Below are positions 4,692 to 48,391 of a DNA stretch of 64,000 nucleotides, in pieces. Both the position numbers and the translations under genes were made by a program. Position 1 is the stretch's first letter. Every line of letters starts with the position of its first letter. A model generated the notes under the pieces. It did not search any database, was not told the DNA's origin, and was given only the letters and a program-made list of their open reading frames with translations. Where the stretch lies: sequence record SRR31156797_986; one strand, written 5' to 3'.

Positions 4692-4712
4692 AGCATGATG
4701 TTTATTTCCAGA

Positions 4713-4720
4713 CAAATTTA
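4713..4720 (-). promoter_or_regulatory. Bacteroidota -7 promoter element (TAAATTTG) for the GH31 gene
   Basis: Matches TAnnTTTG about 20 nt upstream of the ATG at 4691. Confidence 0.5.
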
Positions 4721-29271: not shown

Positions 29272-31749
29272 TTATTCGCAGGGGGGAAATGTAATGGTCT
29301 TGGAACTGAAAATTTTCACCATATAGGCTTTTCCCGGTTCGAGTACCGGAAGTGTATTTATATCCTTATCAGGCCAGTAAACACCTGATCCCGCGGCGTC
29401 TTTAACCACCCTGATAAAACTTGTAACACCGGAAAATAATTCTTCTGTGTTTACCGCACATTCTGACAGGACCGGAATCAGGTTCCATCCATTTTCGAGG
29501 GTGATCGTCCTGTTTGTATTGGTTAATCCCGGGAAGTTTAAAGAACAGGGTTCAATAACTTTTATAAAATAGCCACTTTGCACACTCCAGCTTTGAAGTG
29601 TATGGATATTCATGCCCGGGCAAAATTGTCCATCCAGGTTTTGGATCATCACCATATCATCCATCACCGGACTGCAGATTACCTCTAGGTTCGGGTTGAG
29701 CGGTACAAGCAACGAAGAAATGCTATTCCATCCTGCTTCGAACTGGAATGTATTAGATGTCAAACCGCTCGTTGCTGAAACTGTGTTGCTCGGGCCGGAT
29801 TCACCGGCATTGTAAACTGAAGTTACATAATATTCGTAGGTTCCGGGCTGTACATTTTCGTCGGTATAAATTTGGCCGGGTATTACCGTTTCGTTGATTT
29901 TTGATCCGTTACGATACACATTGTATCCCATCAAATCACGGTTGTCAGGATTGTTGATTTGTGACCCTGGCTTCACCGGGTAGGGAACAAGCAGTCCGGT
30001 TGTGTTTTTCGTGAGAATATTTTTCTGTAATATTCCTGTTGCAAATGTTTTTCCGTCCGGGCTGGTGTTGACGAACGCCTGGATGTTCCAGTTAAAATTC
30101 ATTCCAAAATCCGACAATTTTGCCCAGGTCACCCCGTCAAATGAGATCAAATCTCCAAACCCTTCCACGGCAGGGCCATTATCTCGCCCCAGAGCACTTT
30201 CACCATTGGGTTGGTCAATTACCGCTACACCAACCCACAACTCATCTGAGGCATCAATCTGAATGATTTCATCAAGCTCAATGAGGTTCCAGCTGTTTTC
30301 AACCATGTTTGTTACAGGTTGGCTAAAAGTAAGATCACCAGCATCTTCACCTGTCCAAATTTTAATTTCATATCCGGCAAGGTCAGTTCCCAGGAATACA
30401 GATACTTTGGTGATGTAAAGCCCGTCAAATGAGGTCAGGTCATCTGATGTCCAGCGGGCCGCAGCATCAAATGAGCCGCCACCAAGCAGTGAAAGAACGC
30501 CTCCTGTGGAACCATCGTCCCGGTGTATCCATTGTGGTTCCAGCGGCTCATCCCAGCTAAGCTGAACATCCCCGCCATTTACCTGGGCCTCAAGGTTTCT
30601 TGGCGGTTCAACGATAGCCTCACCCGGGATTATTTTCATGATTGCACCCTGGTAAAAATTAAAATTTTGTCCGGCAGGATTAAGGTTGGATAGATAAAAA
30701 TAACCATTGGCATAACCACCCCATCCCCAGTTCATGTGAAAATAGTCATCAGCAGCATAGCCATCGCAAACCCAGGCATGGCCACCTGAGCCCTGGCCCC
30801 GATAAATCATAGGCCTGCCAAGATCGAGTTCTTCCCTGAGCATTGCCTCCCAAACCTCATCGGAATAGGAATTTTTATTGTAATACTGTCCTTGTGGATC
30901 GTAATTGAAATAGTTTTCGAGTGCATTAATTGCATCACCAGTGTAGGCGCCTGAGCCGTTCGGGCCAAATTGCATATCAACGCTCACGGCACAATGGTAA
31001 ATCAATGTGGCTACAGCAGGATTGCTACTGTATACACTGTTGGTCATATTATCCCATTCGTACGTAGTATTGCCAAAATCAGCCGATTGCCAACCATAGG
31101 GTGAAGCATAGTAGGAATGTGATCCTGTTCCTGTTGAAGGGTAGTCCCAGTATTTCATAACCTGTGCCATTGCCAGGGCAACGCATCCGGCGGGTACCCG
31201 TCCGCAATAGCCGTTTGGAGCACCTTCGTCCTCCGGGCACAATTCGTTGTAATAGCAGCTTTGGTTCCAGGTTGTGGAAAGCAATGGATTCACTGACCTT
31301 GCTCCGTCCTGCTGCTGTGCAGGATCAATGAGTTCGTCCCATGAGGCACTTATTTCAGGAGTTGGTTTTACATCATCTGCTATGGCTTCCTCAATTTGTT
31401 TTTCAAATGTGCCAAGCATCATCCTAAATGCTTCTGGTTGATTTTCTTTACCGACAGGAAAAATGCCATTATCAGAATAGCCTGCAACAGGGATCACACC
31501 ATCCCATCCCGTTACCAAAACAAAGCCTTCGTCATTTATATTGAATATATAAATCAGACTCTGATCGCTCCGTATCCTGGTTTCTGCCAGTTTTACCACA
31601 AGATCCAATGGGTCATGTTCCTGTGATTGTATGCTGTAGAAATTTTTTGCTACCTCCCTGGCATCATCCGGCGTTATATGATCAGCATATGTTTGAAATG
31701 AACTGAACAGGAAAATCAACAATATGGAAAAGTGAGTAATGTATTTCAT
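29272..31749 (-). CDS. C10 (streptopain/SpeB-like) cysteine protease with I69-type prodomain, FN3-like region and C-terminal GWN double module; no T9SS CTD
   Basis: Signal peptide; prodomain YIFN..GFVLV; WNQ, AGCVALAMAQ (Cys), GHAWVCDGY (His), HMNWGWGG (Asn); own TATTTTTG element at 31800-31793. Confidence 0.9.
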   Translation of the reverse strand: MKYITHFSILLIFLFSSFQTYADHITPDDAREVAKNFYSIQSQEHDPLDLVVKLAETRIRSDQSLIYIFNINDEGFVLVTGWDGVIPVAGYSDNGIFPVGKENQPEAFRMMLGTFEKQIEEAIADDVKPTPEISASWDELIDPAQQQDGARSVNPLLSTTWNQSCYYNELCPEDEGAPNGYCGRVPAGCVALAMAQVMKYWDYPSTGTGSHSYYASPYGWQSADFGNTTYEWDNMTNSVYSSNPAVATLIYHCAVSVDMQFGPNGSGAYTGDAINALENYFNYDPQGQYYNKNSYSDEVWEAMLREELDLGRPMIYRGQGSGGHAWVCDGYAADDYFHMNWGWGGYANGYFYLSNLNPAGQNFNFYQGAIMKIIPGEAIVEPPRNLEAQVNGGDVQLSWDEPLEPQWIHRDDGSTGGVLSLLGGGSFDAAARWTSDDLTSFDGLYITKVSVFLGTDLAGYEIKIWTGEDAGDLTFSQPVTNMVENSWNLIELDEIIQIDASDELWVGVAVIDQPNGESALGRDNGPAVEGFGDLISFDGVTWAKLSDFGMNFNWNIQAFVNTSPDGKTFATGILQKNILTKNTTGLLVPYPVKPGSQINNPDNRDLMGYNVYRNGSKINETVIPGQIYTDENVQPGTYEYYVTSVYNAGESGPSNTVSATSGLTSNTFQFEAGWNSISSLLVPLNPNLEVICSPVMDDMVMIQNLDGQFCPGMNIHTLQSWSVQSGYFIKVIEPCSLNFPGLTNTNRTITLENGWNLIPVLSECAVNTEELFSGVTSFIRVVKDAAGSGVYWPDKDINTLPVLEPGKAYMVKIFSSKTITFPPCE

Positions 31750-31841
31750 GATTACATGGTTTTTGATTGAATCCTGGTTTACTTGTCAGGAACAAAAATA
31801 ATCAAATCATTTAAGAGATTGAAACAAAGGTGGAAAAGATG

Positions 31842-33098
31842 CTACTCGCAGGTATCGAAGTGAATGGTGAAATTTCCTGTGGATTTTAACAGGTAGGCTC
31901 TTCCCGGTTCAAATGTTTGCAGGGTGAAGATGTTGAATTCAGGCCAGAAGATTTTATTTCCGGCTATTTCCTGGACAATTAAAACGCTGTTAAGGTGGCC
32001 CTGGCATAACTCAGGGATAGCAAATGTGCAATTAGACGGAACCGGCACAATATTCCATCCGGTTGTGATATCGATGGATTCTTCCTCAATAACATATCCT
32101 TCAATTTCCAGTGAAATACTGTTTTTGAGTTTTATTTGATATCCATTATTTTCCCAGGTTCCGATCGTATTTAGGTTTCCTGCCGGCATAAAACACCCTT
32201 CACCATCGAAGATCATTTCAACATCATCGAGGTGTGGCGCAAACAATTCATTCAGGTTGGCAAACCATGGTTGTACAAAACTTGATATACCCGACCAGCC
32301 TTCCGGAATTGTTATTGAGATGACTGTGCCGGCGGACAAATCCTGTGTAACGCTAATGGCATTGGGAATGAATGTGTCCAGTTGCATTAAAGGATCGTAT
32401 GTTGCCAGGGCTGTAAACTCTTGCTGGTACTCCCAGGAATATAATTTCCAGGCAAAAGTCTCACCAATCATGAAACCATCTTTTTCTGCAGTGAGATAGT
32501 TGTCCCCCTGTGCAACTACTGCCGTGTTGCCTGCGCCTTCCCATTGTATTGCACCGCCACATTTCTGAATGCCATTATTGTCCTCATAAAAAACACCAAT
32601 AAAATCTCCGGGCTGGATTGGCGTTTCAAAAATCCGGGGATTCGATTCATACATTATGATGATGGTATGCTGTGTAAACGAAGGATTATATTCCCAGCCA
32701 GGGGGAATCAGTGATGGTTCTTCAATTACGTGGATGTAGTCATTTTTTACCAGGGTATCGGACCCGGTAGATCCGGAAACAATGAGTTGTACATCGTAAA
32801 CACCCGGGAAATTATAAATAACAACTGGATTTTCTTCATACACTATAGAGGGCGATCCACCTTCAATGTTCCACTGGAAAAAGTTAGGGTTTCCTGTTGA
32901 AAGGTTCGTAAACGCCAGTGGATGGCCGACCGTTACAACGGTATCTTCAGCCATAAAATCTGCAATGATTAATTGCCTGCCGGCCTGGGAGGGGTTCGGT
33001 TTTTCAGCCGGTAAAGATTGTCCGAAAACATGGATTCCACCCACAAGTGAAATCATGAATGCTATGAAAAAGAGCCTTAAATTCATTTTTTTATTCAT
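31842..33098 (-). CDS. Secreted PKD-domain protein with two uncharacterised modules shared with neighbouring secreted proteins
   Basis: Signal peptide; PKD (ADF..FTNLSTGNP..W..EGGSP..NP...Y..PGVYDVQL); ends in DTCE; TATATTTG at 33220-33213. Confidence 0.8.
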   Translation of the reverse strand: MNKKMNLRLFFIAFMISLVGGIHVFGQSLPAEKPNPSQAGRQLIIADFMAEDTVVTVGHPLAFTNLSTGNPNFFQWNIEGGSPSIVYEENPVVIYNFPGVYDVQLIVSGSTGSDTLVKNDYIHVIEEPSLIPPGWEYNPSFTQHTIIIMYESNPRIFETPIQPGDFIGVFYEDNNGIQKCGGAIQWEGAGNTAVVAQGDNYLTAEKDGFMIGETFAWKLYSWEYQQEFTALATYDPLMQLDTFIPNAISVTQDLSAGTVISITIPEGWSGISSFVQPWFANLNELFAPHLDDVEMIFDGEGCFMPAGNLNTIGTWENNGYQIKLKNSISLEIEGYVIEEESIDITTGWNIVPVPSNCTFAIPELCQGHLNSVLIVQEIAGNKIFWPEFNIFTLQTFEPGRAYLLKSTGNFTIHFDTCE

Positions 33099-33305
33099 TC
33101 AAAAATGCAAATGTCTTAAAATACGTTGCCTGGTATCGAGCGATAAATTTTGCCTGGTAATCATTTTCTGAATAATCGACCAAACCACAATCCCAGCCCA
33201 ATACCATGGGCGCAAATATATCACTTTCTGTCTGAATTTAAGAAGGATAGGCCGGGAATTTTTGAGGTGGCCCCGAAAGGCTAAAATTTATCTTATGCCC
33301 AATTT

Positions 33306-34112
33306 TTAAGCAGGGTCATTTGATGGCATTTGAGAAGCATTTACAAATGCATCCAGGTCAGGTGGCAGATAGTTATCAATGATCGAATCGATAAGTTTGA
33401 TGTATTCATCTCCCTTTTCTGAGTACCGGGCAAGGCCATGTGCCAGTTCTTTGGCGTCGGGCCAGGCATTTTGATCGCGAAGTTCTGTTCTGGTTTTTCT
33501 CAGGCCTTCGTATGCAAAACCAGTATTTAACAGCCACATGTATTCTTCAATACAGGCTTCGATGGTTGGAAATGCTTTAACCCAAAAACTGGGGTTTTCA
33601 ACACCTGAGGCTGCCCGGCCGCATCCGGGAGTGTGGCAATGTATCCCAAAATAATTGTTGATTTCCCGGGCGAATTTTGATTTTCCCCAACCTGATTCGA
33701 TAATGGCCTGTGCCATAACCAACTTTTCAGGGATGTAATCCACATGATAGAGCAGTGTGTCCATTTTTCTGGAATAAGAAGCTCTGCTGGTAGTATCTGT
33801 AAAAAAATTTTCACCAAAACGGTATTCTTTCGCCAGATCATTTAACCGGTCCCGCTTTCTGTTTTTTACGATCACATGCCGGTAATCATCTTTCAGGTTT
33901 ATGAGCATAGATCGCTGAAGTTTGATTTTTTCGTTGGCTTCAACAGCGTTGGGATAAAAAGTTGTAATAAAATTTTTATGGCGTTCAGTTAATTGCTTTA
34001 CCGTTTGTATGGATTCAGGATCTGGGGGTGATTGCTTATCGGACTGGCATGAACTTATTACCAGCACCAGTAATATTATTGATATTATTTCCGGAAGAAT
34101 ATTTCGACCCAT
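33306..34112 (-). CDS. GH73 glucosaminidase (Bax-like), lipoprotein
   Basis: Lipobox VISS-C; IPEKLVMAQAIIESGWGKSKFA..NNYFGIHC; YMWLLNT...Y; RYS motif. Confidence 0.85.
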   Translation of the reverse strand: MGRNILPEIISIILLVLVISSCQSDKQSPPDPESIQTVKQLTERHKNFITTFYPNAVEANEKIKLQRSMLINLKDDYRHVIVKNRKRDRLNDLAKEYRFGENFFTDTTSRASYSRKMDTLLYHVDYIPEKLVMAQAIIESGWGKSKFAREINNYFGIHCHTPGCGRAASGVENPSFWVKAFPTIEACIEEYMWLLNTGFAYEGLRKTRTELRDQNAWPDAKELAHGLARYSEKGDEYIKLIDSIIDNYLPPDLDAFVNASQMPSNDPA

Positions 34113-34114
34113 AA

Positions 34115-34825
34115 TTAGTAGTTGTGAAAGTTTGTTTTCATGATCAGAATCAGGCTATTGATGTATTTTTCCTTTTTAATGGAATAATTCTTTAGCCCCT
34201 GTACCACATAAAACGGATCCGGCAAGTCAGTGTTCAACCGGTTAATAATTCTCAGGTCCCGGAAATCCTGGTAATACTTGCTGGAATTCAACAACAACAT
34301 GTAATTACGAATGCAATCAGTTGGGGAGGAAAATTTTTTCACCCAAAAATTTTTCTTTTTGGACCTATGTGCCTCAACTCCACACCCCGGAGTGTAGCAC
34401 TGTATTCCATAATAATTGTTGCACTCTTTTACAAACCTTGATTTTCCCCAGTTGGATTCGATGGCCGCCTGTGCAAGTGCCAGTTTCTGCGGGATGATAT
34501 CAACCCTTTTTAAAAGTTCTTTGAAGTGCTGATCTGTGATAGTAATTCTGGCTGAATCGTCCTGAAGCGATACCTTGTACAACCTGGCATAATTGATTAT
34601 GAGTTTCTTTTCATGGGAAGATAGTTGGCTGGTAGCTTTAAAATTTTGATAAATGGTGTAAATACCTGACCGCTGTTGCGCAATTTCATGATTTACCTGT
34701 TTGATTGCCGGAAGTATTGAATCGGTAAATTGCTGTTGTTCATCTGACAGTTTCTGTTGTGCAGATATCAGGGACGGGATCAGCAGAATGACAGTTAACA
34801 GGTAAATGAGGTGATTCTTATCCAA
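34115..34825 (-). CDS. GH73 glucosaminidase (Bax-like), SPI signal peptide
   Basis: RVDIIP.KLALAQAAIESNWGKSRF..NNYYGIQC; YMLLLNS; NYS; TTG start; TAGTTTTG at 34920-34913. Confidence 0.85.
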   Translation of the reverse strand: MDKNHLIYLLTVILLIPSLISAQQKLSDEQQQFTDSILPAIKQVNHEIAQQRSGIYTIYQNFKATSQLSSHEKKLIINYARLYKVSLQDDSARITITDQHFKELLKRVDIIPQKLALAQAAIESNWGKSRFVKECNNYYGIQCYTPGCGVEAHRSKKKNFWVKKFSSPTDCIRNYMLLLNSSKYYQDFRDLRIINRLNTDLPDPFYVVQGLKNYSIKKEKYINSLILIMKTNFHNY

Positions 34826-34980
34826 TTGAGTTAGAATTGGTTAATAATTGTTTTTATGGTGATGTAGATTTTTCGACTGCCACAAAAAGTTTGGAACAGG
34901 TTTTGAAAGGGGCAAAACTACGAATTAACATCATGCAACTTTTGATTTGAATCGTTGTTATTATTAACAATACATAAGTT

Positions 34981-35856
34981 ATGACTTCTAGCATAAGAAA
35001 TTCTGAACTTGATGCACTTGTGAGTTTACTTGACGAGCCTGATGATAATATCTTCGGCCAGGTTCGTGATAAAATCTATTCATACGGTCTGGACGCCATA
35101 CCGGTTCTCGAAAATGCCTGGGATGGGTCTGCAGATAATCACCTTCAGGGTCGCATCGAAACGATTATTCACCAGATTCAGTTCGATCATGTACTTCAGG
35201 AATTTAGCCTGTGGAAAACAAACTTGAGTCATGATTTGCTGAAAGGCTTTATCCTTGTGGCAAATTATCAGTATCCCGAACTCGACGAAAAATCTATCAT
35301 TACACAGGTTGGAAAAATCATCCAGGATGTATGGCTGGAATTAAATAACAACCTCACGCCTCTCGAGAAAATTAAAGTGCTCAATCACATATTTTTTGAT
35401 GTTAATGGATTCAAGGATAACAGGAAGGATCTGTATTCACCCAACAATTCGTTCATCAATAATGTGCTTGAATCCAGGAAGGGCAATTCGGTTTCGTTAA
35501 GCATTTTATACATGGTTGTGGCACAGAGCCTTAAGGTCCCTGTTTACGGCATCAATCTGCCCCAGGAGTTTGTTATGGCCTACATGGGTACAATGATACT
35601 CGATCAAAAAAGTATTACGGCGAAAGATGTTCAGTTTTACCTGAATGCCAAAAATAAGGGTGCAGTTTTTACTAGAAGGGAAATCGAGCGATTTTTGATG
35701 CAACTCAACCTGGAAGCTGAGGATAAATATTTTTTGCCTTGCGATAATATTACCATCATCCGGCGGGTACTGAATAACCTGTTGTTTTCCTATCAGCAAT
35801 CAGGCAATACGGAGAAGGCATTGGAGATTAAAAAAATTCAGGATGTTCTTGGCTAA
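34981..35856 (+). CDS. SirB1-like transglutaminase-fold protein
   Basis: LVSLLDEPD, NSFINNVLESRKGNSVSL, YGINLP, RRVLNNL. Confidence 0.82.
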   Translation: MTSSIRNSELDALVSLLDEPDDNIFGQVRDKIYSYGLDAIPVLENAWDGSADNHLQGRIETIIHQIQFDHVLQEFSLWKTNLSHDLLKGFILVANYQYPELDEKSIITQVGKIIQDVWLELNNNLTPLEKIKVLNHIFFDVNGFKDNRKDLYSPNNSFINNVLESRKGNSVSLSILYMVVAQSLKVPVYGINLPQEFVMAYMGTMILDQKSITAKDVQFYLNAKNKGAVFTRREIERFLMQLNLEAEDKYFLPCDNITIIRRVLNNLLFSYQQSGNTEKALEIKKIQDVLG

Positions 35857-36305
35857 GCCAGATTAGCATAATCCGGAATGTCATCAAGGAAAGAAAATGT
35901 ATTTTCACCAAAGTCAATTCGTGCACAGTAATGATTTAATCCGTTCGTAACAACCAGGAATTCAACCTGGAGGGTCATATTGTATCTCCCGATCTGTTCA
36001 AAAACTGCCTGTGATACTTTTACCGAAGGGGCTTTACACTCCACAATCATTCGTGCCCTGGCTCCGGAGCCATAAACGACAATATCAGTTCGTTTGGTGA
36101 GCTTATTCAACGACAATGATTTTTCCACAGCGATCAGGGAGGGCGGCACATGCTTATATTCAACCAGGTACCGGATAAAATTTTGCCTTACCCACTCTTC
36201 CGGTGTAAGGGCAACAAACTTTTTTCTGACTGAATCAAATATCTCCATTAGATTGTCTGATTCCCTGATCCTGAATTTAAATTCCGGTAAGTGGAGTTGT
36301 TGCAT
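35853..36305 (-). CDS. Stand-alone HsdR N-terminal-domain protein (HSDR_N_2)
   Basis: IFDSVRKKFVALTPEEWVRQ, RTDIVV, IVECKAP, QIGRYN, VTNG. Confidence 0.88.
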   Translation of the reverse strand: MQQLHLPEFKFRIRESDNLMEIFDSVRKKFVALTPEEWVRQNFIRYLVEYKHVPPSLIAVEKSLSLNKLTKRTDIVVYGSGARARMIVECKAPSVKVSQAVFEQIGRYNMTLQVEFLVVTNGLNHYCARIDFGENTFSFLDDIPDYANLA

Positions 36306-36323
36306 TGTTGATTATTGTTGAGG

Positions 36324-36361
36324 CAAACTTACACATTATCGCGTGGTTTGGCTTATTTTTG
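36324..36361. promoter_or_regulatory. Back-to-back divergent -7 elements (TAAGTTTG minus 36331-36324; TATTTTTG plus 36354-36361)
   Basis: Two TAnnTTTG matches in the 74-bp gap between the HsdR_N gene and amn. Confidence 0.55.
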
Positions 36362-36379
36362 CAATCAAATCCTAAAGCA

Positions 36380-37150
36380 ATGAAAACCAAAAAAGAAATA
36401 GTCCAAAACTGGCTGCCACGCTACACAGGCTTGCAACTCGAGGAGTTTGGAAAGTACATTTTGCTCGTAAATTTTCAAAAATACCTGGATATGTTTGCCG
36501 AAATGCACAATGTTGAAATTGTTGGTATGGACCGTGCAATGCCCTGTGCTACTGCTGGTGATATTACCATGATTAAATTCGGAATGGGCAGTGCTAATGC
36601 CGCTACGATTATGGATTTACTGAGTTCTATCCACCCCAAAGCGGCACTTTTCCTGGGCAAATGTGGTGGGTTGAAAAAGAAAAACCAGTTGGGCGATCTC
36701 ATTCTTCCCATTGCTGCCATCCGTGGTGATGGGGTTTCAAACGATTATTTCCCCATAGAGGTGCCTGCACTTCCGGCGTTTAGTTTACAGAAAGCCATCT
36801 CAACCACCATCCGTGAGCACAACAGCGATTACTGGACAGGCACTGTTTTTACCACAAACCGAAGGGTTTGGGAACACGACGAAAAATTTAAAAAGCATCT
36901 CCGCAAAACACGTTCGATGGGGGTTGATCTCGAAACAGCCACCATTTTTATTGTGGGGTTTGCCAATGAAATTCCAACGGGTGCACTGCTTCTGGTGTCA
37001 GATCAGCCCATGATCTCGGCGGGTGTTAAAACCGAAAGCAGCGACAAGGTGGTTACCGATAATTACATGGACAAACACCTGAGATTTGGCATCGAATCGT
37101 TGAACCAACTCATCGAAAACCGGCAAACAGTAAAGCACCTACGTTTTTAA
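36380..37150 (+). CDS. amn: AMP nucleosidase
   Basis: MKTKKEIVQNWLPRYTG, FGMGSANAAT, LFLGKCGGL, TTNRRVWE, DLETAT, LLLVSDQP. Confidence 0.92.
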   Translation: MKTKKEIVQNWLPRYTGLQLEEFGKYILLVNFQKYLDMFAEMHNVEIVGMDRAMPCATAGDITMIKFGMGSANAATIMDLLSSIHPKAALFLGKCGGLKKKNQLGDLILPIAAIRGDGVSNDYFPIEVPALPAFSLQKAISTTIREHNSDYWTGTVFTTNRRVWEHDEKFKKHLRKTRSMGVDLETATIFIVGFANEIPTGALLLVSDQPMISAGVKTESSDKVVTDNYMDKHLRFGIESLNQLIENRQTVKHLRF

Positions 37151-37167
37151 CCTTTTAAAATCAGGCC

Positions 37168-38178
37168 ATGGATTTCCAAAATATCGTTAGCAAGATAAAC
37201 AACAGGATATTTTCACCGGTGTATTTTTTGGTTGGTGAAGAACCTTACTTTATTGATAAAATAAGCAAGCTCATCGAAACCACAGTGCTTGATGAGTCAG
37301 AGCGCGATTTTGGATTAAATGTGGTTTATGGCCGCGATGTAGCCATCGACCAGGTGCTGGCACTGGCAAAAGAATATCCAGGGTTTGGTGAGTACAAGGT
37401 TGTGATAGTGAGGGAGGCACAACACATGCGTGAACTGGAGAAAAACGAGTACCTGAAAGCGTACCTTAAAAAGCCGGTGGAATCAACCATCCTGGTTTTT
37501 GACTACAAATACAAGAAACTGGATAAACGTACCGAATTTGCTAAACTGGTAGCCAAAAACGGTGTGTTGTTTCAGTCGGAGCCCAAACGTGATTATCAAA
37601 TTCCCGATTATATCGAAAAAAGTTTACAGGCAAAGGGGTTTCGGGTTACGACCATTACAAAAACCCTGCTTGCTGAAAACCTGGGAACAAACCTGAGCAA
37701 GATTGAAAATGAGATCAATAAACTGTTGCTGAATGTGGAGCCCGGGGCGGAAATCACGCCGGAAATTGTTGAGGAAAATATTGGGATCAGCAAGGATTAT
37801 AATATTTTTGAACTGCAGCGGGCGCTGGGTAAACGGGATGTAGTAAGGGTGAATAAGATCATCAACTATTTTGGTTCAAACCCCAAAGAATATCCGGCTA
37901 TCATGCAAATCGTACTCATCTACAATTATTTCAGAAAGATTTTCCATTTTCATTTTTTAAAAGATAAAAATGACCAAAACCGTGTAGCTGCCGAGATTGG
38001 GGTAGCTCCATTTTTTGTGAAGGAATACAGGGCCGCTGCAGGCGTTTATAGCCCCAAAAAACTCCGCAGAATTTTTTCCCTTCTTCGCCAATACGACCAA
38101 AAAGCAAAAGGCGTTGAAAGTACCCCGATAGAACATGGAGAACTGATGAAAGAGCTGGCATTTAAAATTATGCACTAA
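37168..38178 (+). CDS. holA: DNA polymerase III delta subunit
   Basis: PVYFLVGEEPYFID, VVIVREAQ, IGISKDYNIFELQ. Confidence 0.93.
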   Translation: MDFQNIVSKINNRIFSPVYFLVGEEPYFIDKISKLIETTVLDESERDFGLNVVYGRDVAIDQVLALAKEYPGFGEYKVVIVREAQHMRELEKNEYLKAYLKKPVESTILVFDYKYKKLDKRTEFAKLVAKNGVLFQSEPKRDYQIPDYIEKSLQAKGFRVTTITKTLLAENLGTNLSKIENEINKLLLNVEPGAEITPEIVEENIGISKDYNIFELQRALGKRDVVRVNKIINYFGSNPKEYPAIMQIVLIYNYFRKIFHFHFLKDKNDQNRVAAEIGVAPFFVKEYRAAAGVYSPKKLRRIFSLLRQYDQKAKGVESTPIEHGELMKELAFKIMH

Positions 38179-38335
38179 GACGATCGAAGTGAAAAAGTGA
38201 GTAGGGAGGCGAGCTGAAAGTTTTGAGCCGAAGCCTGTTTAAAGCAAGAAAGTTACTTGCCCGTTGCCAAAAAAATTACGGATATTCAAAGCCGCCTTTA
38301 TCAAAATAAATCACCGGAAAATTCGAGGTGGCAAT

Positions 38336-38698
38336 CTATTCAGGACTGTTATCCAGAATTTCACGCTGCTTTTTGCTCAGGCCTTTCACCACCATGTCCC
38401 AGGAATGGTCGATCCATTCGATGATTAATGATCTGCTAACCGAACCATCAATAGAAATTGTATTCCAGTGCTTTTTGCTGGTGTGATATCCAGGCTTAAC
38501 CGATGGATATTTTTCACGCAACCAAATAGCCTTGTCCGGATCGCATTTTAGGGTTATTGACAGGTCGGTTTCATCAAGCGGTATGATAGCAAACATTTTC
38601 CCGGCCACTTTAAAAACCAATGTAACATCGTCAAATGGAGTACTTTCGGTAACGGCCCTTTTCGACAAACAGTAGTTTCTTATTTCTTCAACGTTCAC
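38336..38698 (-). CDS. MmcQ/YjbR family DNA-binding protein
   Basis: PFDDVTLVFKVAGKMFA, LKCDP, PGYHTSKKHWN; GTG start. Confidence 0.9.
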   Translation of the reverse strand: MNVEEIRNYCLSKRAVTESTPFDDVTLVFKVAGKMFAIIPLDETDLSITLKCDPDKAIWLREKYPSVKPGYHTSKKHWNTISIDGSVSRSLIIEWIDHSWDMVVKGLSKKQREILDNSPE

Positions 38699-38847
38699 AG
38701 CAAATCTGTTTTATGATTGATATTGTAAAAATATAAATACGAATGTATTAAAATATGATTTACTTTTGCAAATATTTTAAGAAGTTTAAGTAATGTCGTT
38801 GTGGCATAAAAATTGTAATTTTAGAACTATATTTAAAGTTTAATACG

Positions 38848-39582
38848 ATGAAAAAACTCCTACTTTTATTACTCGTTTTCACAGGCCTTTCGATGGCTTC
38901 AACTGCTCAGGTCCTGGAGCTGTTTCACGACGAAGAACCTTTTCCAATGGGTGGTACTTTTGAAGTTCAGGGATACCCCAATGATTTTGAAATTGTTTCA
39001 CACATCACCGTAAAAAATGTTTCCAGCCAGGAAGTAGTGGTGAAGTGCAGAAAAATTGAAATTGAGTTGGTTCCCGAAACAACCAATGTATTTTGTTGGG
39101 GACTGTGTTATGCACCTTCTGTTTTCCTCTCACCACTCACTATTACAATCGCTCCTGGTGACACTACCCAGGAATTTAGTGGACACTACATGCCCGGAGG
39201 AAACGAGGGAGTCACAAAAATGTGCTATAGTTTCTTTGATGTTGACAACCCCAATGATTCCACCTATTTCTATGTAAATTATAATGGAACATACAGTGTA
39301 GGAATTGGTGACCGGATTGCTGAACCTACATTCGTTTCACTTCCATATCCAAACCCGGCGAGTTCAATGGTAAGTTTTGATTACCAACTTCCTGCCGGAA
39401 CAACCACGGCAAGGATCAATGTACATAATCTTCTTGGTGCAAAAGTTAAGGAAATTAATATTTTAGGTATGGAAGGAAAAGTTACTGTAAATATTGATGA
39501 TCTGAATGATGGTATCTATTTCTATTCAGTGAATGTAGATAATGAAGTTGTTGAAACCAAACGGCTCGTGATATCCAGATAG
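38848..39582 (+). CDS. Small T9SS cargo protein (Ig-like domain plus type A CTD)
   Basis: Signal peptide; FCWGLCY; CTD YPNPASS...GIYFYSV...KRLVISR; TACTTTTG at 38761-38768. Confidence 0.85.
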   Translation: MKKLLLLLLVFTGLSMASTAQVLELFHDEEPFPMGGTFEVQGYPNDFEIVSHITVKNVSSQEVVVKCRKIEIELVPETTNVFCWGLCYAPSVFLSPLTITIAPGDTTQEFSGHYMPGGNEGVTKMCYSFFDVDNPNDSTYFYVNYNGTYSVGIGDRIAEPTFVSLPYPNPASSMVSFDYQLPAGTTTARINVHNLLGAKVKEINILGMEGKVTVNIDDLNDGIYFYSVNVDNEVVETKRLVISR

Positions 39583-39612
39583 ATATAGATATAAAAATAT
39601 AAGAAATTTTCC

Positions 39613-39647
39613 AAAAGCCTTCATCTAACGATGAGGGCTTTTTTTTT
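39613..39647 (+). terminator. Intrinsic terminator
   Basis: AAAAGCCTTCATC-taac-GATGAGGGCTTTT hairpin plus T-run. Confidence 0.85.
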
Positions 39648-39919
39648 GGATTCCCGGATGAATTTAAGCATACCTCTCACAATCATTTTTGATGTTTCAG
39701 GCCATTTGGTCGAAATACCGTAGCCCTTGTTATTCCTGCCTTTATAAAGTCATCAGATTGAAAATCAGTTAAAAGCTTGCATTACATCTATATTTTGTGT
39801 ATATTTAGGGCTTCTATATTTTAAAAACCAATTCTGTTGCCTATGAACCAAACAAACTAACCTCAATACATGGAATCCATCCTCTTGCAAAATATTTAGT
39901 AACTTAAAAACCCAAAAAA

Positions 39920-42900
39920 ATGAAAACATTTTACAAAATTTTGTTTGCAATGATTTTTCTATTTCCGGTAATCACTGCAGATGGTCAAAATCTAACCGGA
40001 TATCCTGATAAGAGCAGTCCTCAAACACTCCACAACAGCAAGTATCAGGTTGAAATATCGGTTACGGAAATACCGGATGAACTATCAAAATCGAAAGGCG
40101 CAAATACGCTATCCCGTGATGCAAAGGCCCGATATACCGGATGGGAAAATGACCCGGACAGCCTGGATGTGTATATTGATGATAACTGGACAGAAGAAGA
40201 GAAAGATTCGGTGAGGGCAGGTATAGCAAGGTGGAATGCTGCAGGGTGTGAGCCTGCTTTAAGGGAATCGTCCACATCCTCCGGAGCGGAAATCACCATT
40301 GCGAAATCATCAAGCTTACCGGATAACAATGCTGGAAGTTGCAGAACAATTTTTGATTCAAGTTCAGGAAAAAACATCAGTTGCGAGATTCAGGTCAACG
40401 ATGATACTTCTCCGCTGAGTATTAAAGAGGTTGTAGCCCACGAACTTGGACACGCGTTGGGATTAAAATACACAGACGCCGAGGCCGACGACAATGTGGG
40501 TGATGTAATGTTCGCAATAGCCCCTTTGGCTCATCAACTAAAAGATAAACCTGAAGATGGGGCAAAGAGATTAAATAGTGATCTTATCAAAGCACAAAAC
40601 GACAGTTATAGCAAAACGGATACAATTATTCGGGAGTTGGATCAATCGCGTGATCCATACGATTGGTACAAAGGATGGGTAGGAGATCCGGATTCTATCA
40701 CGGTTTACATCGATCCGAATTTTACTACTGCGCAAAAGGCAGAAATCCAAGCAGCAATCGATCGATGGAATAATGAGGGCTGTGTTCCTGCATTGAAAAC
40801 GGTGACCACATCGCCGGCCAACGTAAATATTACAAGAAATGATGCATTGGGTGGTGGTGGAAAATGTACCCTGTATGGTAATGCTGCTACCGGCGAAGTT
40901 TCAAGGGCTGAGATTGAGATTGACACGGATGGCGAGCCTGGATATGCAAATACAAGTGTTGGCGAACTTACTACGCACGAGTTGGGGCATGCGCTTGGAC
41001 TGGATCATACTAACAATGCCGCTGATGTTATGAAACCGGTTGGCTCCAATGGCAATAACGGAGCGTTATCGGCGGAAGATAAGCGCGAATTGCAGCGGGC
41101 AGGCACTCAGGCTGTGGCCTATGTTCCACCGGATAAAGCAGAAGCCCCGGCAAATGCGATGGCCCCGGGAGAATCGCAAATTGTCAGTTTCGAACTGGTT
41201 GATTATTATCCTCCTGAAATCCTGTCACAAACCTATGCCGAAGTTTACCCATTTTATGATCCACAATTATTTGTTGATTTTGCAGAAATTGATTTTACAA
41301 TTCTCAATGTAGCTGTAACTTCAGATATTACGCATCCAAATAGTACTATGTACCTCATGGTAGAGTTATTCCCTCCGGCACCATACGAACCGGTCAGTTT
41401 CTTGGGTTATCATTTCATACACACTGATCCGGTTGACCCGGTTGCGTTTGAGTGCCCGTTTGAAGTGATCCAGGAGGGTGAAAACGTTTACGTTGACTGG
41501 ACAGATATGTGTACCTATCCGTTTGAAAATAATTTGCGATCCAAATTGACAATTGATGGCGATATCAAATGCCTGGTCAAGGAACAGGAAAATTATAACA
41601 TCCAGCTATCGCCGGGCATGCATACACTTGAATTAACTGTTGATGACTTCCAGGTAAACAGTGCTTCTTATAACATGGAAGTTTTTGTCGAGTCTACCAC
41701 GCCCCCATGGGAAGACGGTTTTGAAATCTATCCACTGAATACCGATATTGTTGGACAAGGTGGATGGGAATTTTGGTTCGGAGGGGAATCGTCACCAAGT
41801 GCAAGGGTAACGGAGGAGCAGGTACACACAGGAGAGTTGGCACTGAAAATACTCGGCAAACCCGATATGACAGGCGATGATATTGTGCATCAGTTTTCGG
41901 AGTGTAATTCAGGAAAGTGGAATCTTAAGCTATGGCAATACATTTCGCCATTTGCCACCACAGGATCTACTTATATTACCCTGCTGAATGATTATGGTTA
42001 TACAATGGAAGAATGCAACTGGTCAACCCAACTGATGTTTAACGCAGCCGATGGCATCGTTGAAAGCCAGTTTGAAGGAGCCCAGCTACCTTTGGTAAAA
42101 GGAGAATGGGTCCCCCTTGAAATCCTCCTCGATTTTGATAACGACCTGCAAACCATAAACTACAATGGTGAAATGTTGACATCCAAGAGCTGGACCGAAG
42201 GCCTGGCGCCCGCGGGAAACATGGAGTTGGCTGCGCTCAACCTGTTTTCCGGAGATATGACTCAGGTGGTTTATTATGATGATATTTCGCTATTACCTGA
42301 AGATAATTTTGGGCTGGAAGATATGGATGCATTTCAAATCAGTTATGATTGGGGTGACTGGAGCGAAGAGAACAGCCGGGTTGGTTTGTTATCCTGTAAA
42401 TATACTCCACAAGAACAGGCAACCTATTTAAATGCATTCACCGTAAATAATAATGGTGAAATATATTGGGTTGGTCAAAATTATCTTCCATCTGCAGAAT
42501 TTTCTTCGGTTGTTCAAAAAACAACCATTTTATTTGATCTGGAACCACTTGGAATAAGCCCAGGTATTACTTTAGAAAGTTTGCCCTTATGGATTACTAT
42601 AAATTCAGAACCGGTGAATGACCTCGCATTATTTGATTTGCCTGATCCAGCCACCTGGCCGGAAATTATGGTGAGTACTCTGGTGGACAATACTTATAAT
42701 GGGTGGATACTCAACTCTAGTATTCCAGGCTATATCGTTGAGCCACCATTCTTTTTTGACCCGAACTGGTGGGATGGAATTTTTGACGAATTCGTTTACA
42801 GAGGGTGTAACGTTCCTGAGTTTGACCTGGATTACACAAATCACCCAGCTGTAGCTGGAGGGTATGCCGGTGATTCCAATGCTTGTGCCCCGGCAGCGGT

Positions 42901-45900
42901 ATCCAGTAGCCTCGAATGGCTCGAGGATGTTTATGAGGATTCTGTTCCAAATTGTAACAACAACCAAACGCACAGGGAAGTATTGGAAGATTTAAGTAAT
43001 CAAATGAACAGGCAGCCAAATCAACCACCTCCCACCTGGACTGATTATATTGGTGGAAAATTAAAATACACCCAAAAACATAAGCTTCCAATAAGGACTA
43101 AATTTCAGTTGGTTACAAATGATGAAATTGCCGCCGGAGCTGATATTCGACCGCCCGGATCGAATTATGAGGCGGATAACCAAACCGGTCCTACAGGAAT
43201 GCCCGATTGGAACTGGCTGGTTAATGAGATGAATAATGGTGAAGATGTTGAAATTAACGTAAATTTCTGGGATGGAACCAAATGGAATGGTGGGCATGTG
43301 GTTGTATGCACCGGACTTTATCAAACAGGAAATGGATCAAAAGGTATTTGGTTTAAGCACGACCGTGATCAGAAAGTAACTGATGCCGATTCAGTATTGC
43401 AGGAACCCTCGGAAATTTTGGAAGGTGGTGGGTGGCTTCGGATTCCTAAACTCAACGGACCGGCAGGTACTGCTTATGTTACAAATTTCCTTTCTGAAAG
43501 TTATGATAATACTGTTGATTATGAAAAGGCCTCCGGAACTTTAGAAGATTCGGATGGCAATCCTGTCGACCCGACAAAGTGTAAAATTAAAGCAAGGCTT
43601 TGGAATAATCCTGACGACAGCTTATCCTCCAGCAGTGGAACCATAAAGTATAAAATCATTGGTGGCAAAGGGTTCTGGGACATCGATTATGATGATTTTG
43701 AAACTCCGCCTCAACCGGGAGATCGGATAGTAGTTACGTTTTGGGATGGCGAAAAGTGGGTAACAAAAGTTTTCAGGGTCCCCGAAGATGGCGGGCCAAT
43801 TTATGAAGATGTTACAATTGAAGATCAGATGATAGTTCATCTTGATTTTACAGAGTGGATACAAATTACCATTCCTCCGCACAAAACCCTCAAAGTTCAT
43901 TGGGACAGCGTTACAGGATGCGGCAATGCCGACATCGTCCAGTGGAATGGTGAAGATTGGTATGTACCATCTTACGGTCATTGGAATTTCAATCCTACCT
44001 GCACAGTCAAGGAAATTTCCAACGACACGGATGCGCCACAGTATAAACGCTTCCATTGTGATGACCCCAATGGCTTTTATCTTGATTTTTCACTGGTTGA
44101 ATCCACCGGCGTTACCACAGGCAGTAATCAATCCGAATATGCAACTGTAAACCTGGGAGGCATGGATATGTCCAATGATGAATTCGGGGATATCATTGAA
44201 GTGCAATATGATTTCAACTACGAAACAAATGCACAACTTGGTGAGTTCCCCGGTACTATTGGAGAAGAAGGTGTGCAGGAGCTATCCGTAAATTTTGAAT
44301 CGTTTGACAATATTTACTGGGAAGATATGATGCTCACCATCGATGTGGCAGATGTTTGGCAGGAAGGATTTTTGGAAATCGAACTGGATGGGAATCCTGA
44401 CAAAGCCCTTGCCCCGATTATTCCCGGCGTACCAACCGTTACAGTAAATATCGGGGCTGTTTTACCTGCCGGAATTCACACCCTCACATTAACCGCCATT
44501 TCAAACGTGTTTTTTGATATTGATTGTTTCAATATCACAACAATGGTTCCTATACCAACGGAAAACTACGACTTGGGCGATTGCCCCGACGATCCGTATC
44601 CAACTCTGTTGGCGAATGATGGCGCACGGCATATGGTTGATAACCTGACCTACCTCGGTGCGTTGATAGATGCAGAAGCTGATGGGCAGCCAAATGCCAC
44701 GGCAACAGGTGACGATATTTCAAATCTCGCCGATGAGGATGGCATCACTTTCGGCCCCATCATGCCGGGAAGTCCTGCTCAAATTACCATCGATCCCAAA
44801 ATTAATCCTGATCCTGATCTAGTAGGATTCCTGCAGGGCTGGATTGACTTTAACAGGGATGGCGACTGGGATGATCCCGGTGAGCAGATTTTCAAGGATG
44901 AAGTGCTGCATTTTTCATCACCCGTATGTTTGCTCTATAATGTGCCTGCAAATGTTACGGCCGGTTCAGTTTATGCCCGGTTCAGGTTCAGTACGGTTCC
45001 AGGACTGAATTATTTCGGCCCCGCACCCGACGGTGAGGTTGAAGATTACCTCGTTGAAGTTGTCGAAGATCAGGGAATGAAATGGTTACAAGAGCCTTGC
45101 CCTGAACTTTCCGGACTGCATTGCCACGACTATGTTAGCGATGGTGAGTACAATTATACAACGATTGCCGACGACTGGCAATGCAACGGTGGCATGGTTA
45201 CAGATATTCACTGGTGGGGTAATTACGAAAACGTTGGGTCGGGGATAGATCACTTCCATTTGAGTATTCACGAAACCCAGCCCGATGGATGTTTGCCCAT
45301 GCAACAGGAAATCTGGGGTATGGATGTTCCGTTAGATATGGCCAACGAAACTTTGTGGAGTGGTCAAATCTTCAGTTACGAATATGTGCTGGATGTACCC
45401 TTCGAGCAGGTTGAAGGGAAAACATACTGGCTGGATATCACAGCCTATGCTAACGATCCACTTGTTCCGGCCATCTGGAGGTGGCAGGAGTCCGACAGAT
45501 CCACGGTTCCATATCATATTTTGTGCCCGGCTGTATCAAGGTCAGCTACTAACCCGCTATGGAACAGTATTATTTGGACCGATTTACAACCCGTCCGCTA
45601 TTCGCAAATGGCTTTTGCAATAACCTCGATAGCTGAAATTGATATTGATTTTGGTGATGCACCGGATGATCCATATCCAACTTTGTTGGCCAGTAATGGA
45701 GCCCGACATCTAATTGATGGCATTACCTATCTTGGTGATTTGATTGATGCTGAAGCCAATGGCCAGCCCAATATTTCTGCTACAGGTGATGATATTGCTA
45801 TTTCCGACGATGAGGATGGGGTTGTATTCCGCGGGCCTCTTGTTGCCGGATCACCAACAATACTTAAAGTAAAAGCATCAGTTGATGGTAAACTGAATGT

Positions 45901-48391
45901 GTGGCTGGATGTCAACAGGAATGGTTTCTGGGGTGACCCTAGTGACCATGTATTTGTTGATTACAACCTGGTAGCCGGCTGGAACTCGCTCATACTAAAT
46001 GTTCCGGCAAATACTAAAGTTGGTATTTCTTACATGCGTTTCCGGTTTAGTCAGGAGGGTGGTGAAACTTATTACGGGCCTTCTACCTATGGTGAGGTGG
46101 AAGATTATCTTGTGAAAGTCTATCCTGAAAACTGGGGATTTATCCCGACTCCGACAACCCACACTATTCTGGTACCACTGAATGTATTATTAACAAATAC
46201 TACGCTGGCTGCCAACGACGCCATTGGTGTTTGGTATGAGGATGATAACGGCAACATGGTTTGTGGTGGGGCAGAAATCTGGGATGGTGCAACGGACCGC
46301 ATTGTGCTGGCTTATGCCGATGATAATACCACCCCTGATAAGGATGGGTTTGATGACGGCGAAATTCTCACCTGGAAAATCTATCATACCGGATTGGCAG
46401 CCGATGAGGTTGTTTCGGTGTTGTATGATGCAACCTTCCCGCAAAGCGATGGAAAGTTTACCAGCTACGGGCTTTCTAAACTTACGGAAATAAATGGCCT
46501 TTCAGCAATTGCAATTGCTTCGCCAGCTGCAACATGTGCCGGCGATCCGGTACAGCTGGATGTGATTGTAACAGGTGGCTCAGGAAATTATACCTATAGC
46601 TGGAGTTCCAACCCAACCGGCTTTACCTCCAACCTAAAGAACCCGGTTGACAACCCAGTACAGGATATTGTTTACACAGTGGTAGTTGATGATGGTGTAA
46701 CTTCTGTTAATTCGTCAGTAGGTGTTTCTGTGCAGGCTGGTCCAACTGCAGATGCGGGCTCAGATGCCACCATTTGTGAAACGGAAACTTACCAATTGGA
46801 CGCCACTGCAACCAATTATGCCACTTTGCAATGGACAACCGATGGTGAGGGTGTATTCAACGATGCTACAGCCGAAGACCCTATTTATATTCCGGGAGCA
46901 AATGATATCGCCCATGGGAATGTGATTTTAACATTAACTGCTTTCCCAATCTTGCCATGTACAAATGTGGCTTCTTCATCAATGGAGTTAACTTTCACCT
47001 ACAACCCAATTGCAGATGCTGGTACTGATGGTTCAGTTTGTGCCGATGGCACTTATCAACTGGATGGTGAGGTTGGCAATTCCAATGTTTATTACTGGTC
47101 AACAGCCGGTGATGGAACCTTTGATGATTCCACACTGCTTGATGCCATGTACGCACCGGGCAGCGGCGATGCACAAGCCGGACAGGTAACGCTCACACTT
47201 ACTGCCAACGCCATTTCTCCATGCCAGATTGATGCAACTGCATCGATGACCCTGATCGTACTGGATACCCAAAAGGTGAGTTTGTTCACAGGTTGGAACG
47301 GGCTTTCCAGCTATCTTTCCCCCATCAACCAAAACAACAATTATCAGCTGTTCAGCTCTGTATTGGCTAATCTTGTTTTGGTTTACAATTTTGATGGAAC
47401 ATTCTGGCCCGACCAGGGAACCAACAGTTTAGTGTGGGATGAAGAATCTGGTTATGTAATCAAGCTCGAAACAGACGATGAAATGATATTCTGTGGTGAT
47501 GATCTGGCAAGTTTGGTAGTTAATTTAAATGAAAACTGGAATATTATCCCTGTGCTAAGTGATACGGATGTTGATGTGTCTTCAGTTTTTGATGCTTCCG
47601 TAGATGTAAAACTGGTGCTTGAAGTGGCCGGATGGAAACTTTTCTGGCCGGAGTACAACATCAATAGCATACTGAACCTCGAAACCGGGAAGTCCTATTT
47701 CGTATTCATGAACGCTGCCGGATCGATAGATTATGCCAATGCATCCAATAAATCAGGTGAAACCAGCAAACCTGTGCTGATCACAGAGACCCCATGGAAT
47801 GAAGTTAACCAATCCCCTGCCGGACATGTGGTTGCATTTACAGGCGCTGCCTGCGAAAAATTTGTTTCCGGAGACGTGATCGGTGCATTTACAAATGAAG
47901 GCTTGTGTGCCGGTATTTCACCGTTTGAAGCTGTTTCAACAGGCATTATCCTTAAAGGTGATGATCCGTACAACTGGCAGGCTGATGGTTTTGCCAATGA
48001 GGAAACTGTGGCTTATAAGCTTTACAGGCCAACTTCAGGTGAGCTTTTCGATATGCAAGTGAGTTACGATCCCGGTTTGGATCATTCAGGGCGTTATCAC
48101 GATTTTGGAATGTCGGCAGTAACCGGATTGAAGTTGCAACCAACAGGCATTTCAGATCATGCGTTATCCACAATCCGAATCTATCCAAATCCATCTCATG
48201 GTATTTTTAATATTGATGGTATTTCAGGCGAAACAGCAATTACGGTTTATGATGCCTATGGAAATATGATTCGTGAAATGATAACGAATGAAAAAGCGAG
48301 GATAAATCTGTCGGAACAAGCTGATGGCATTTACCTTGTGAAGGTCAAAACCTTAAATGGTACACATTATCAAAAAGTGGTTATCAACTGA
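39920..48391 (+). CDS. Giant (2823 aa) T9SS cargo: two matrixin-like metzincin domains, ConA-like domain, putative C39-like cysteine peptidase, two GEVED repeats, Ig-like repeats, shared modules and CTD
   Basis: Signal peptide; HELGHALGL twice; NACAPAA/GGHVVV/KHD; GEVEDY twice; ADAG.D..IC/VC repeats; C-terminal IYPNPSHG...GIYLVKV...KVVIN. Confidence 0.85.
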   Translation: MKTFYKILFAMIFLFPVITADGQNLTGYPDKSSPQTLHNSKYQVEISVTEIPDELSKSKGANTLSRDAKARYTGWENDPDSLDVYIDDNWTEEEKDSVRAGIARWNAAGCEPALRESSTSSGAEITIAKSSSLPDNNAGSCRTIFDSSSGKNISCEIQVNDDTSPLSIKEVVAHELGHALGLKYTDAEADDNVGDVMFAIAPLAHQLKDKPEDGAKRLNSDLIKAQNDSYSKTDTIIRELDQSRDPYDWYKGWVGDPDSITVYIDPNFTTAQKAEIQAAIDRWNNEGCVPALKTVTTSPANVNITRNDALGGGGKCTLYGNAATGEVSRAEIEIDTDGEPGYANTSVGELTTHELGHALGLDHTNNAADVMKPVGSNGNNGALSAEDKRELQRAGTQAVAYVPPDKAEAPANAMAPGESQIVSFELVDYYPPEILSQTYAEVYPFYDPQLFVDFAEIDFTILNVAVTSDITHPNSTMYLMVELFPPAPYEPVSFLGYHFIHTDPVDPVAFECPFEVIQEGENVYVDWTDMCTYPFENNLRSKLTIDGDIKCLVKEQENYNIQLSPGMHTLELTVDDFQVNSASYNMEVFVESTTPPWEDGFEIYPLNTDIVGQGGWEFWFGGESSPSARVTEEQVHTGELALKILGKPDMTGDDIVHQFSECNSGKWNLKLWQYISPFATTGSTYITLLNDYGYTMEECNWSTQLMFNAADGIVESQFEGAQLPLVKGEWVPLEILLDFDNDLQTINYNGEMLTSKSWTEGLAPAGNMELAALNLFSGDMTQVVYYDDISLLPEDNFGLEDMDAFQISYDWGDWSEENSRVGLLSCKYTPQEQATYLNAFTVNNNGEIYWVGQNYLPSAEFSSVVQKTTILFDLEPLGISPGITLESLPLWITINSEPVNDLALFDLPDPATWPEIMVSTLVDNTYNGWILNSSIPGYIVEPPFFFDPNWWDGIFDEFVYRGCNVPEFDLDYTNHPAVAGGYAGDSNACAPAAVSSSLEWLEDVYEDSVPNCNNNQTHREVLEDLSNQMNRQPNQPPPTWTDYIGGKLKYTQKHKLPIRTKFQLVTNDEIAAGADIRPPGSNYEADNQTGPTGMPDWNWLVNEMNNGEDVEINVNFWDGTKWNGGHVVVCTGLYQTGNGSKGIWFKHDRDQKVTDADSVLQEPSEILEGGGWLRIPKLNGPAGTAYVTNFLSESYDNTVDYEKASGTLEDSDGNPVDPTKCKIKARLWNNPDDSLSSSSGTIKYKIIGGKGFWDIDYDDFETPPQPGDRIVVTFWDGEKWVTKVFRVPEDGGPIYEDVTIEDQMIVHLDFTEWIQITIPPHKTLKVHWDSVTGCGNADIVQWNGEDWYVPSYGHWNFNPTCTVKEISNDTDAPQYKRFHCDDPNGFYLDFSLVESTGVTTGSNQSEYATVNLGGMDMSNDEFGDIIEVQYDFNYETNAQLGEFPGTIGEEGVQELSVNFESFDNIYWEDMMLTIDVADVWQEGFLEIELDGNPDKALAPIIPGVPTVTVNIGAVLPAGIHTLTLTAISNVFFDIDCFNITTMVPIPTENYDLGDCPDDPYPTLLANDGARHMVDNLTYLGALIDAEADGQPNATATGDDISNLADEDGITFGPIMPGSPAQITIDPKINPDPDLVGFLQGWIDFNRDGDWDDPGEQIFKDEVLHFSSPVCLLYNVPANVTAGSVYARFRFSTVPGLNYFGPAPDGEVEDYLVEVVEDQGMKWLQEPCPELSGLHCHDYVSDGEYNYTTIADDWQCNGGMVTDIHWWGNYENVGSGIDHFHLSIHETQPDGCLPMQQEIWGMDVPLDMANETLWSGQIFSYEYVLDVPFEQVEGKTYWLDITAYANDPLVPAIWRWQESDRSTVPYHILCPAVSRSATNPLWNSIIWTDLQPVRYSQMAFAITSIAEIDIDFGDAPDDPYPTLLASNGARHLIDGITYLGDLIDAEANGQPNISATGDDIAISDDEDGVVFRGPLVAGSPTILKVKASVDGKLNVWLDVNRNGFWGDPSDHVFVDYNLVAGWNSLILNVPANTKVGISYMRFRFSQEGGETYYGPSTYGEVEDYLVKVYPENWGFIPTPTTHTILVPLNVLLTNTTLAANDAIGVWYEDDNGNMVCGGAEIWDGATDRIVLAYADDNTTPDKDGFDDGEILTWKIYHTGLAADEVVSVLYDATFPQSDGKFTSYGLSKLTEINGLSAIAIASPAATCAGDPVQLDVIVTGGSGNYTYSWSSNPTGFTSNLKNPVDNPVQDIVYTVVVDDGVTSVNSSVGVSVQAGPTADAGSDATICETETYQLDATATNYATLQWTTDGEGVFNDATAEDPIYIPGANDIAHGNVILTLTAFPILPCTNVASSSMELTFTYNPIADAGTDGSVCADGTYQLDGEVGNSNVYYWSTAGDGTFDDSTLLDAMYAPGSGDAQAGQVTLTLTANAISPCQIDATASMTLIVLDTQKVSLFTGWNGLSSYLSPINQNNNYQLFSSVLANLVLVYNFDGTFWPDQGTNSLVWDEESGYVIKLETDDEMIFCGDDLASLVVNLNENWNIIPVLSDTDVDVSSVFDASVDVKLVLEVAGWKLFWPEYNINSILNLETGKSYFVFMNAAGSIDYANASNKSGETSKPVLITETPWNEVNQSPAGHVVAFTGAACEKFVSGDVIGAFTNEGLCAGISPFEAVSTGIILKGDDPYNWQADGFANEETVAYKLYRPTSGELFDMQVSYDPGLDHSGRYHDFGMSAVTGLKLQPTGISDHALSTIRIYPNPSHGIFNIDGISGETAITVYDAYGNMIREMITNEKARINLSEQADGIYLVKVKTLNGTHYQKVVIN

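Follow-up and report, generated by a model that had tools for sequence, protein, structure and literature searches.

Dockerins, the small, helical, Ca-binding modules of the cellulosome, occur duplicated at the C-terminus of secreted enzymes, and their cohesin partners are repeated on non-catalytic scaffoldins. A cellulosome-like complex with annotated dockerin and cohesin domains and a CTD-bearing scaffoldin is described for Ca. Stygibacter (Cloacimonadota) in excerpts of PMC8542988. The available sections of two papers (PMC10994853, PMC9251779) state that T9SS moves folded proteins CTD-first, and three T9SS CTD types, A, B and C, are distinguished in the accessible part of PMC10202324. In gingipains, according to passages of PMC10319874, the paired motifs ABM1 and ABM2 keep the fragments of a cleaved T9SS polyprotein non-covalently associated.

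The locus described here lies in a window (the whole stretch of DNA that was analysed) of 64,000 nt and encodes three proteins sharing a module, A, two of which also carry a second module, B. It seems reasonably probable that A and B are a dockerin/cohesin-like non-covalent pair, unrelated to it in sequence, which docks CTD-less enzymes on T9SS cargo. Like a dockerin, A is a duplicated module at the C-terminus of secreted proteases and CAZymes, but it is ~160 aa long and mostly beta in the model. B, a predicted beta-sandwich, is like a cohesin repeated on non-catalytic CTD scaffolds (2-4 B, no A). Adaptor-like proteins carrying both modules and anchoring by a surface-sorting domain are likenesses to the cellulosome; A and B differ from it in being very often in cis, as an A-linker-B-CTD tail, and in that A-tagged cargo must cross the outer membrane without an export signal of its own. 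The gingipain motifs are a precedent, by analogy only, for a clasp in cis across the A-B linker (median 15 residues; Lys or Arg in 141 of 150 linkers), but they are short motifs inside one precursor, whereas A and B are full domains found also on separate genes. A resembles the CTD types in that dozens to >100 unrelated secreted proteins of a genome carry it, mostly close to the C-terminus; unlike them, it has no CTD-model match, coexists with a type A CTD and is not always terminal.

Proteins of the locus

The same two-repeat module was found at the three places given for it in the earlier note, i.e., in a C10 protease, a PKD protein and a giant protein (Table 1). Pairwise identity among the three copies was 30-35% (BLASTP E 1e-19 to 1e-28), and no fourth copy was found within the window. 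The C10 and PKD proteins ended at one aligned column (FPPCE* and FDTCE*) and lacked a CTD, both as previously noted: Pfam gave no CTD match and NCBIfam, searched at E 0.1, gave no match for either protein. The giant protein comprised two M10-like metallopeptidase domains, two GEVED domains, DUF7901 and a free module B, followed by module A and, behind it, the linker, second module B and type A CTD (PF18962, aa 2754-2822) that agree with the module and classical CTD read there before. Among the three proteins, only the last 70 aa of the giant matched CTD models.

Table 1. Positions of the three proteins and of their modules in the window.
Feature	Position	Strand	Details
C10 cysteine protease; likely cargo	29272..31749	-	signal peptide, I69 propeptide, C10 domain, Fn3-like region, terminal module A; no CTD
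C10 module A, terminal, two ~80-aa GW repeats, with stop codon	29272..29757	-	aa ~665-825; pLDDT 95.9
PKD protein (signal peptide-PKD-B-A, no CTD); likely monovalent adaptor	31842..33098	-	
PKD protein module A, terminal, with stop codon	31842..32324	-	aa ~259-418
PKD protein module B, immediately N-terminal to A	32319..32708	-	aa 131-260
Giant protein, 2823-aa T9SS cargo; candidate scaffold or carrier	39920..48391	+	
Giant 'free' module B, no A adjoining; candidate docking site in trans	46121..46510	+	
Giant module A, internal, without both Cys	47267..47749	+	aa ~2450-2610
Giant A-B linker, Lys/Ser-rich, low-confidence	47750..47782	+	pLDDT under 50 at model residues 166-171
Giant module B, post-A copy, predicted beta-sandwich	47783..48148	+	
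Giant T9SS type A CTD	48179..48388	+	PF18962 E 4.6e-13; TIGR04183

The intergenic gaps behind the C10 and PKD stop codons were about 55 and 92 nt, which leaves no space for a lost CTD. Truncation or pseudogenisation of T9SS cargo as the origin of the short genes, for which one split copy in genome G002 could be cited, retains virtually no probability and was refuted by conservation. All nine aligned C10 orthologs (51-73% identity) ended at the same column, in keeping with the previous argument that identical end points speak against random truncation; the two-gene arrangement was kept, with the PKD gene directly upstream of the C10 gene in four of the eight closest loci, and 154 distinct terminal copies of module A were found. 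Several of these eight loci were labelled Lentimicrobiaceae.

The middle of the C10 protein (29770-30600, minus strand; aa ~383-660) looked like a split Fn3 domain with an inserted domain, and had only weak fn3 and RGI_lyase matches in Pfam. Its layout presumably resembles the gingipain ABM1/cleaved-adhesin/ABM2 arrangement. Two tandem glucosaminidase (PF01832) genes (33306-34825, minus strand) lay upstream of the PKD-C10 pair, and ORFs matched to them by size lay upstream of the pair also in loci L001, L003 and L004. Just upstream of the giant gene, a small 244-aa protein (38848-39582, plus strand) had a type A CTD but neither module. The same held for a GH31 protein (1290-4715, minus strand), which also contained a LamG domain; the modules are thus not used by all T9SS cargo of the window.

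Module A as a family

Module A is a real, unnamed module. The earlier note had proposed comparing it with Pfam and with known structures: no characterised Pfam family and no clear structural match was found, and NCBIfam gave no family either. The AlphaFold model had two beta-rich repeats with short helices (pLDDT 95.9). Foldseek at E 0.001 gave no match for A or for A-B, the best VIA-align result for A had a Z of 4.6 with no clear PDB match, and the ESM Atlas search returned unnamed clusters only, both for A and for B. A PDB sequence search gave only partial matches of 44 residues (WD40, ferredoxin), which were judged to be chance. Dockerin (PF00404) and cohesin (PF00963) were not matched in Pfam by A or B, and no dockerin was among the fold matches listed for A; the Pfam search that found no family for A did detect a true dockerin in protein P0072. 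Two B copies tested alone and the tandem-B proteins had no Pfam family, and the B region, folded within a longer chain, had no clear match (best VIA-align Z 6.9, rmsd 3.6, 100 aligned; 5ek8_A).

At E 0.001 the module A profile matched 21,890 representatives, and at 1e-30 it matched 1,501. Four related genomes had 44, 84, 105 and 135 matches. The module was carried by 53 of the 251 genomes sampled at order level, and in Cloacimonadota by 30 of 41. Both modules recur in little-studied Bacteroidales and Cloacimonadota. No description of either was found in the literature that was searched, where unnamed domains are hard to find by words.

Terminal and internal positions of module A

Among 211 proteins with module A, the module was terminal in 85, followed by linker, B and CTD in 102 and otherwise placed in 24, in a set biased to relatives of the query that may include fragments. 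The architecture of A was largely two-state, i.e., at the end of a CTD-less protein or within an A-linker-B-CTD tail, which supports docking. In G002, module B lay downstream in frame in 56 of 84 A matches; of the remaining 28, 24 were confirmed as terminal and CTD-less, and the other four were a split copy, the second A of a long protein, a match at a gap and one without assignment. By the tabulation proposed earlier, terminal copies were thus common, at 85 of the 211 proteins and 24 of the 84 G002 matches.

The terminal-A set of G002 included C10, two C25 and two M14 peptidases and a starch-binding protein. In G040 and G168, all 26 A copies examined (of 49 matches) were terminal, on GH5, GH9, PL1, PL11, PL14 and pectinesterase enzymes without CTD. 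The cargo of A was very diverse, with proteases as well as CAZymes. The N-termini of 49 terminal-A proteins resembled ordinary signal peptides by eye, with two weak lipobox matches. Three Cloacimonadota proteins had C10 cargo with an A-B-CTD-like tail of its own; the occurrence of the same cargo in this second form favours docking.

Module A might instead itself be a novel signal for T9SS export that a PorV-like shuttle of its own recognises, B being incidental. The 26 strictly C-terminal copies of the two CAZyme-rich genomes, often with basic ends, would fit such a signal, as would the signal peptides seen by eye and the three CTD types that T9SS already has (PMC10202324, in part). It would be redundant, though, in the 102 of 211 proteins that already had a CTD; CTD-less proteins also had A at the N-terminus or internally, in front of Fib_succ_major domains; and no PorP, SprF or PorV match was obtained at E 1e-30 for 44 of 82 neighbouring ORFs, the 38 left out being mostly A- or B-bearing proteins and recognised housekeeping neighbours. 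An export signal is accordingly considered unlikely. The same N-terminal and internal copies in CTD-less proteins do not agree with the earlier description of A as standing in place of a CTD.

In many cases a Fib_succ_major (PF09603)-like domain came next after module A (L291-L306 in G224 and G114, and P0155, there without CTD); G224 and G114 had 164 and 206 candidate sites at first look. In Cloacimonadota (L100 and L192, G005:C55), an M14 carboxypeptidase ending in A directly followed a large gene that had a B close to its C-terminal end. Across the sample of this phylum, ORFs of ~615-650 aa with terminal A recurred.

C-terminal residues and the cysteine pair

The '-CE-stop' ending had been put forward in the earlier note as part of a sorting signal, and this did not hold: CE closed no more than 22 of the 154 terminal copies and 13 of the 85 terminal proteins, and many terminal copies ended in FP or basic residues instead. 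Of 336 copies, 189 had the last Cys of A together with a Cys of repeat 2 (Cys824 and Cys764 in the C10 protease), 130 had neither and 17 had one of the two. These residues were the top covarying pair of A (z 12), and both were present in 114 of 182 internal copies, including CTD-bearing ones. Most simply, the pair is likely a disulfide that closes the domain, as its covariation suggests; -CE would then mark a domain boundary and not a signal. Both window proteins and most C10 orthologs did end in CE or CD, as a short terminal sorting or lipidation motif would have it; against the 22 of 154 terminal copies with CE and the covarying Cys pair of internal copies, such a motif is extremely improbable.

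Module B apart from module A

Scaffolds with a CTD carried 2-5 copies of B, and B also stood at the N-termini of long CTD stalks. In G163, CTD proteins that lacked A bore 2, 3, 4 and 4 copies of B, mostly on SprB-repeat stalks; CTD-less terminal-A proteins were present there as well. G002 had N-terminal B on large CTD proteins, together with CTD-less B-B-B-A and B-B-A proteins. In Cloacimonadota, tandem-B genes adjoined B-A-B-CTD genes. The PKD protein of the window is likely a CTD-less (B)n-A adaptor.

G040 and G168 both had SprA. In both, B was encoded by a signal-B-CTD gene of 222-223 aa, by a gene for a lone B and by a long B-stalk gene, the last of them CTD-ended where read whole. The divergent B copies of these genomes were found by broader profiles, the first, shallow B profile having missed them. 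A ~3985-aa CTD protein of G040 (CotH, LTD and Big_2 domains) was rejected as a scaffold, as it contained no B. Of 24 genomes of the G040 family, 23 had A and all had B. The short B-CTD gene was present in 7 of 7 genomes with at least 11 A matches and in 2 of 17 with 0-4 (Fisher p 1e-4, which overstates the evidence because the genomes are related and incomplete). Its relatives in the database were all of 210-224 aa with PF18962 (14 of 14). The co-existence in this family of terminal-A enzymes and a separate signal-B-CTD gene supports docking in trans.

Genes of 126-128 aa in L193 and L196 encoded a signal peptide and a lone B; such genes occurred in each of the seven A-rich members of the G040 family and in two further genomes. 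Their products are possibly caps or chaperones.

G040 and G168 had few detectable B copies (6 and 3) against 28 and 21 A matches, and two proteins of the G040 family had an internal B-A plus a CTD; both count against docking.

Predicted contact between modules A and B

The AF2 model of the giant A-linker-B segment (294 aa, 22 sequences) had a pLDDT of 90.3, a pTM of 0.88 and a disordered linker. For two independently placed domains we would expect pTM to be capped near 0.55, and the value obtained, with the linker unstructured, points to a fixed A-B arrangement in cis. From this one cis model, A is predicted to pack on B. Covariation between A and B in 215 cis chains did not exceed that of within-cluster shuffles (top z 5.2 vs. 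5.1-6.3 shuffled; pairs over z 4.5, 6 vs. 5-16); at this low depth the result is weak either way, and as it stands it counts against docking. B-A junctions with a zero-residue gap were also common (51 cases) and are not explained by a single A-B interface.

The two modules could be a cis superdomain only. More broadly, A, alone or with B as such a superdomain, may be a ligand-binding or structural accessory module, with CTD-less A proteins periplasmic or vesicle-borne and the genes ending at A simply as a domain boundary. The lack of A-B covariation and the predicted cis packing are consistent with this, and the aromatic residues conserved in both repeats of A could bind glycans; according to parts of PMC6247017, other Bacteroidota keep CTD-less cellulases in the periplasm or release them in vesicles. 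An accessory module leaves unexplained, however, the conserved signal-B-CTD and signal-B genes and their link to A-rich genomes, as well as the (B)n-A adaptors, and the great diversity of the cargo (proteases, CAZymes) speaks against it. We regard it as improbable, though as deserving consideration.

Among the 251 order-level genomes, 53 had A, 62 had B and 50 had the two modules together, counts inflated by cis linkage and kinship in genomes that are incomplete. The joint occurrence in 50 genomes supports docking.

Proposed docking and export

Modules A and B form a real, widespread, unnamed two-module system whose putative docking role has strong genomic support. The suggestion of a dockerin-like tag made in the earlier note is upheld in part, by the genomic architecture (terminal A common, B on CTD carriers and scaffolds) and by the cis A-B model. 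Docking is favoured because the parts list, with tagged enzymes, minimal carriers, multivalent scaffolds and adaptors, fits the logic of the cellulosome.

By the docking reading, terminal A would bind a free B after Sec export, probably already in the periplasm; the CTD of the partner would pull the A-B complex through SprA, and the docked enzyme would stay surface-bound via that partner. In the cis tail, an A-B clasp would keep cargo attached if the Lys- or Arg-containing linker were cut. At the locus, either the PKD adaptor or the giant protein would offer the B to which the C10 protease attaches, and the adaptor would in turn use its own A to dock on a CTD-bearing B. Periplasmic docking with piggyback export through T9SS is the simplest route, since terminal-A proteins have no export signal and T9SS pulls CTD-first; we infer it tentatively, and rate it at somewhat less than an even chance. 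The literature held no precedent that we found for piggyback export through T9SS, which, if confirmed, would be categorically new.

Uncultured Bacteroidales and Cloacimonadota may possibly have an independently evolved cellulosome-like assembly, made of two domains for which no clear relative has been solved, with piggyback export, B-CTD carriers and branched adaptor and scaffold display, a reading that is again held with some doubt; that display would include a whole cellulolytic and pectinolytic enzyme set. If docking is true, T9SS cargo need not carry a CTD of its own, and secretome predictions for these abundant anaerobic degraders would overlook a sizeable fraction of the surface enzymes (in G002, 24 of 84 A proteins; in the G040 family, all 26 examined). 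It would also place a cellulosome-like mechanism within Bacteroidota, whose cellulolytic members Cytophaga and Sporocytophaga are described in the available part of PMC6247017 without dockerins and scaffoldins, and would add an orthogonal tool for pairing proteins. At 220 aa, the carrier gene is short enough for the docking idea to be examined with two small constructs in a laboratory T9SS host.

Protein P0072 (3424 aa) had five A copies, several B copies and PKD domains, with the true type I dockerin at its end, which suggests that the two docking systems can be linked.
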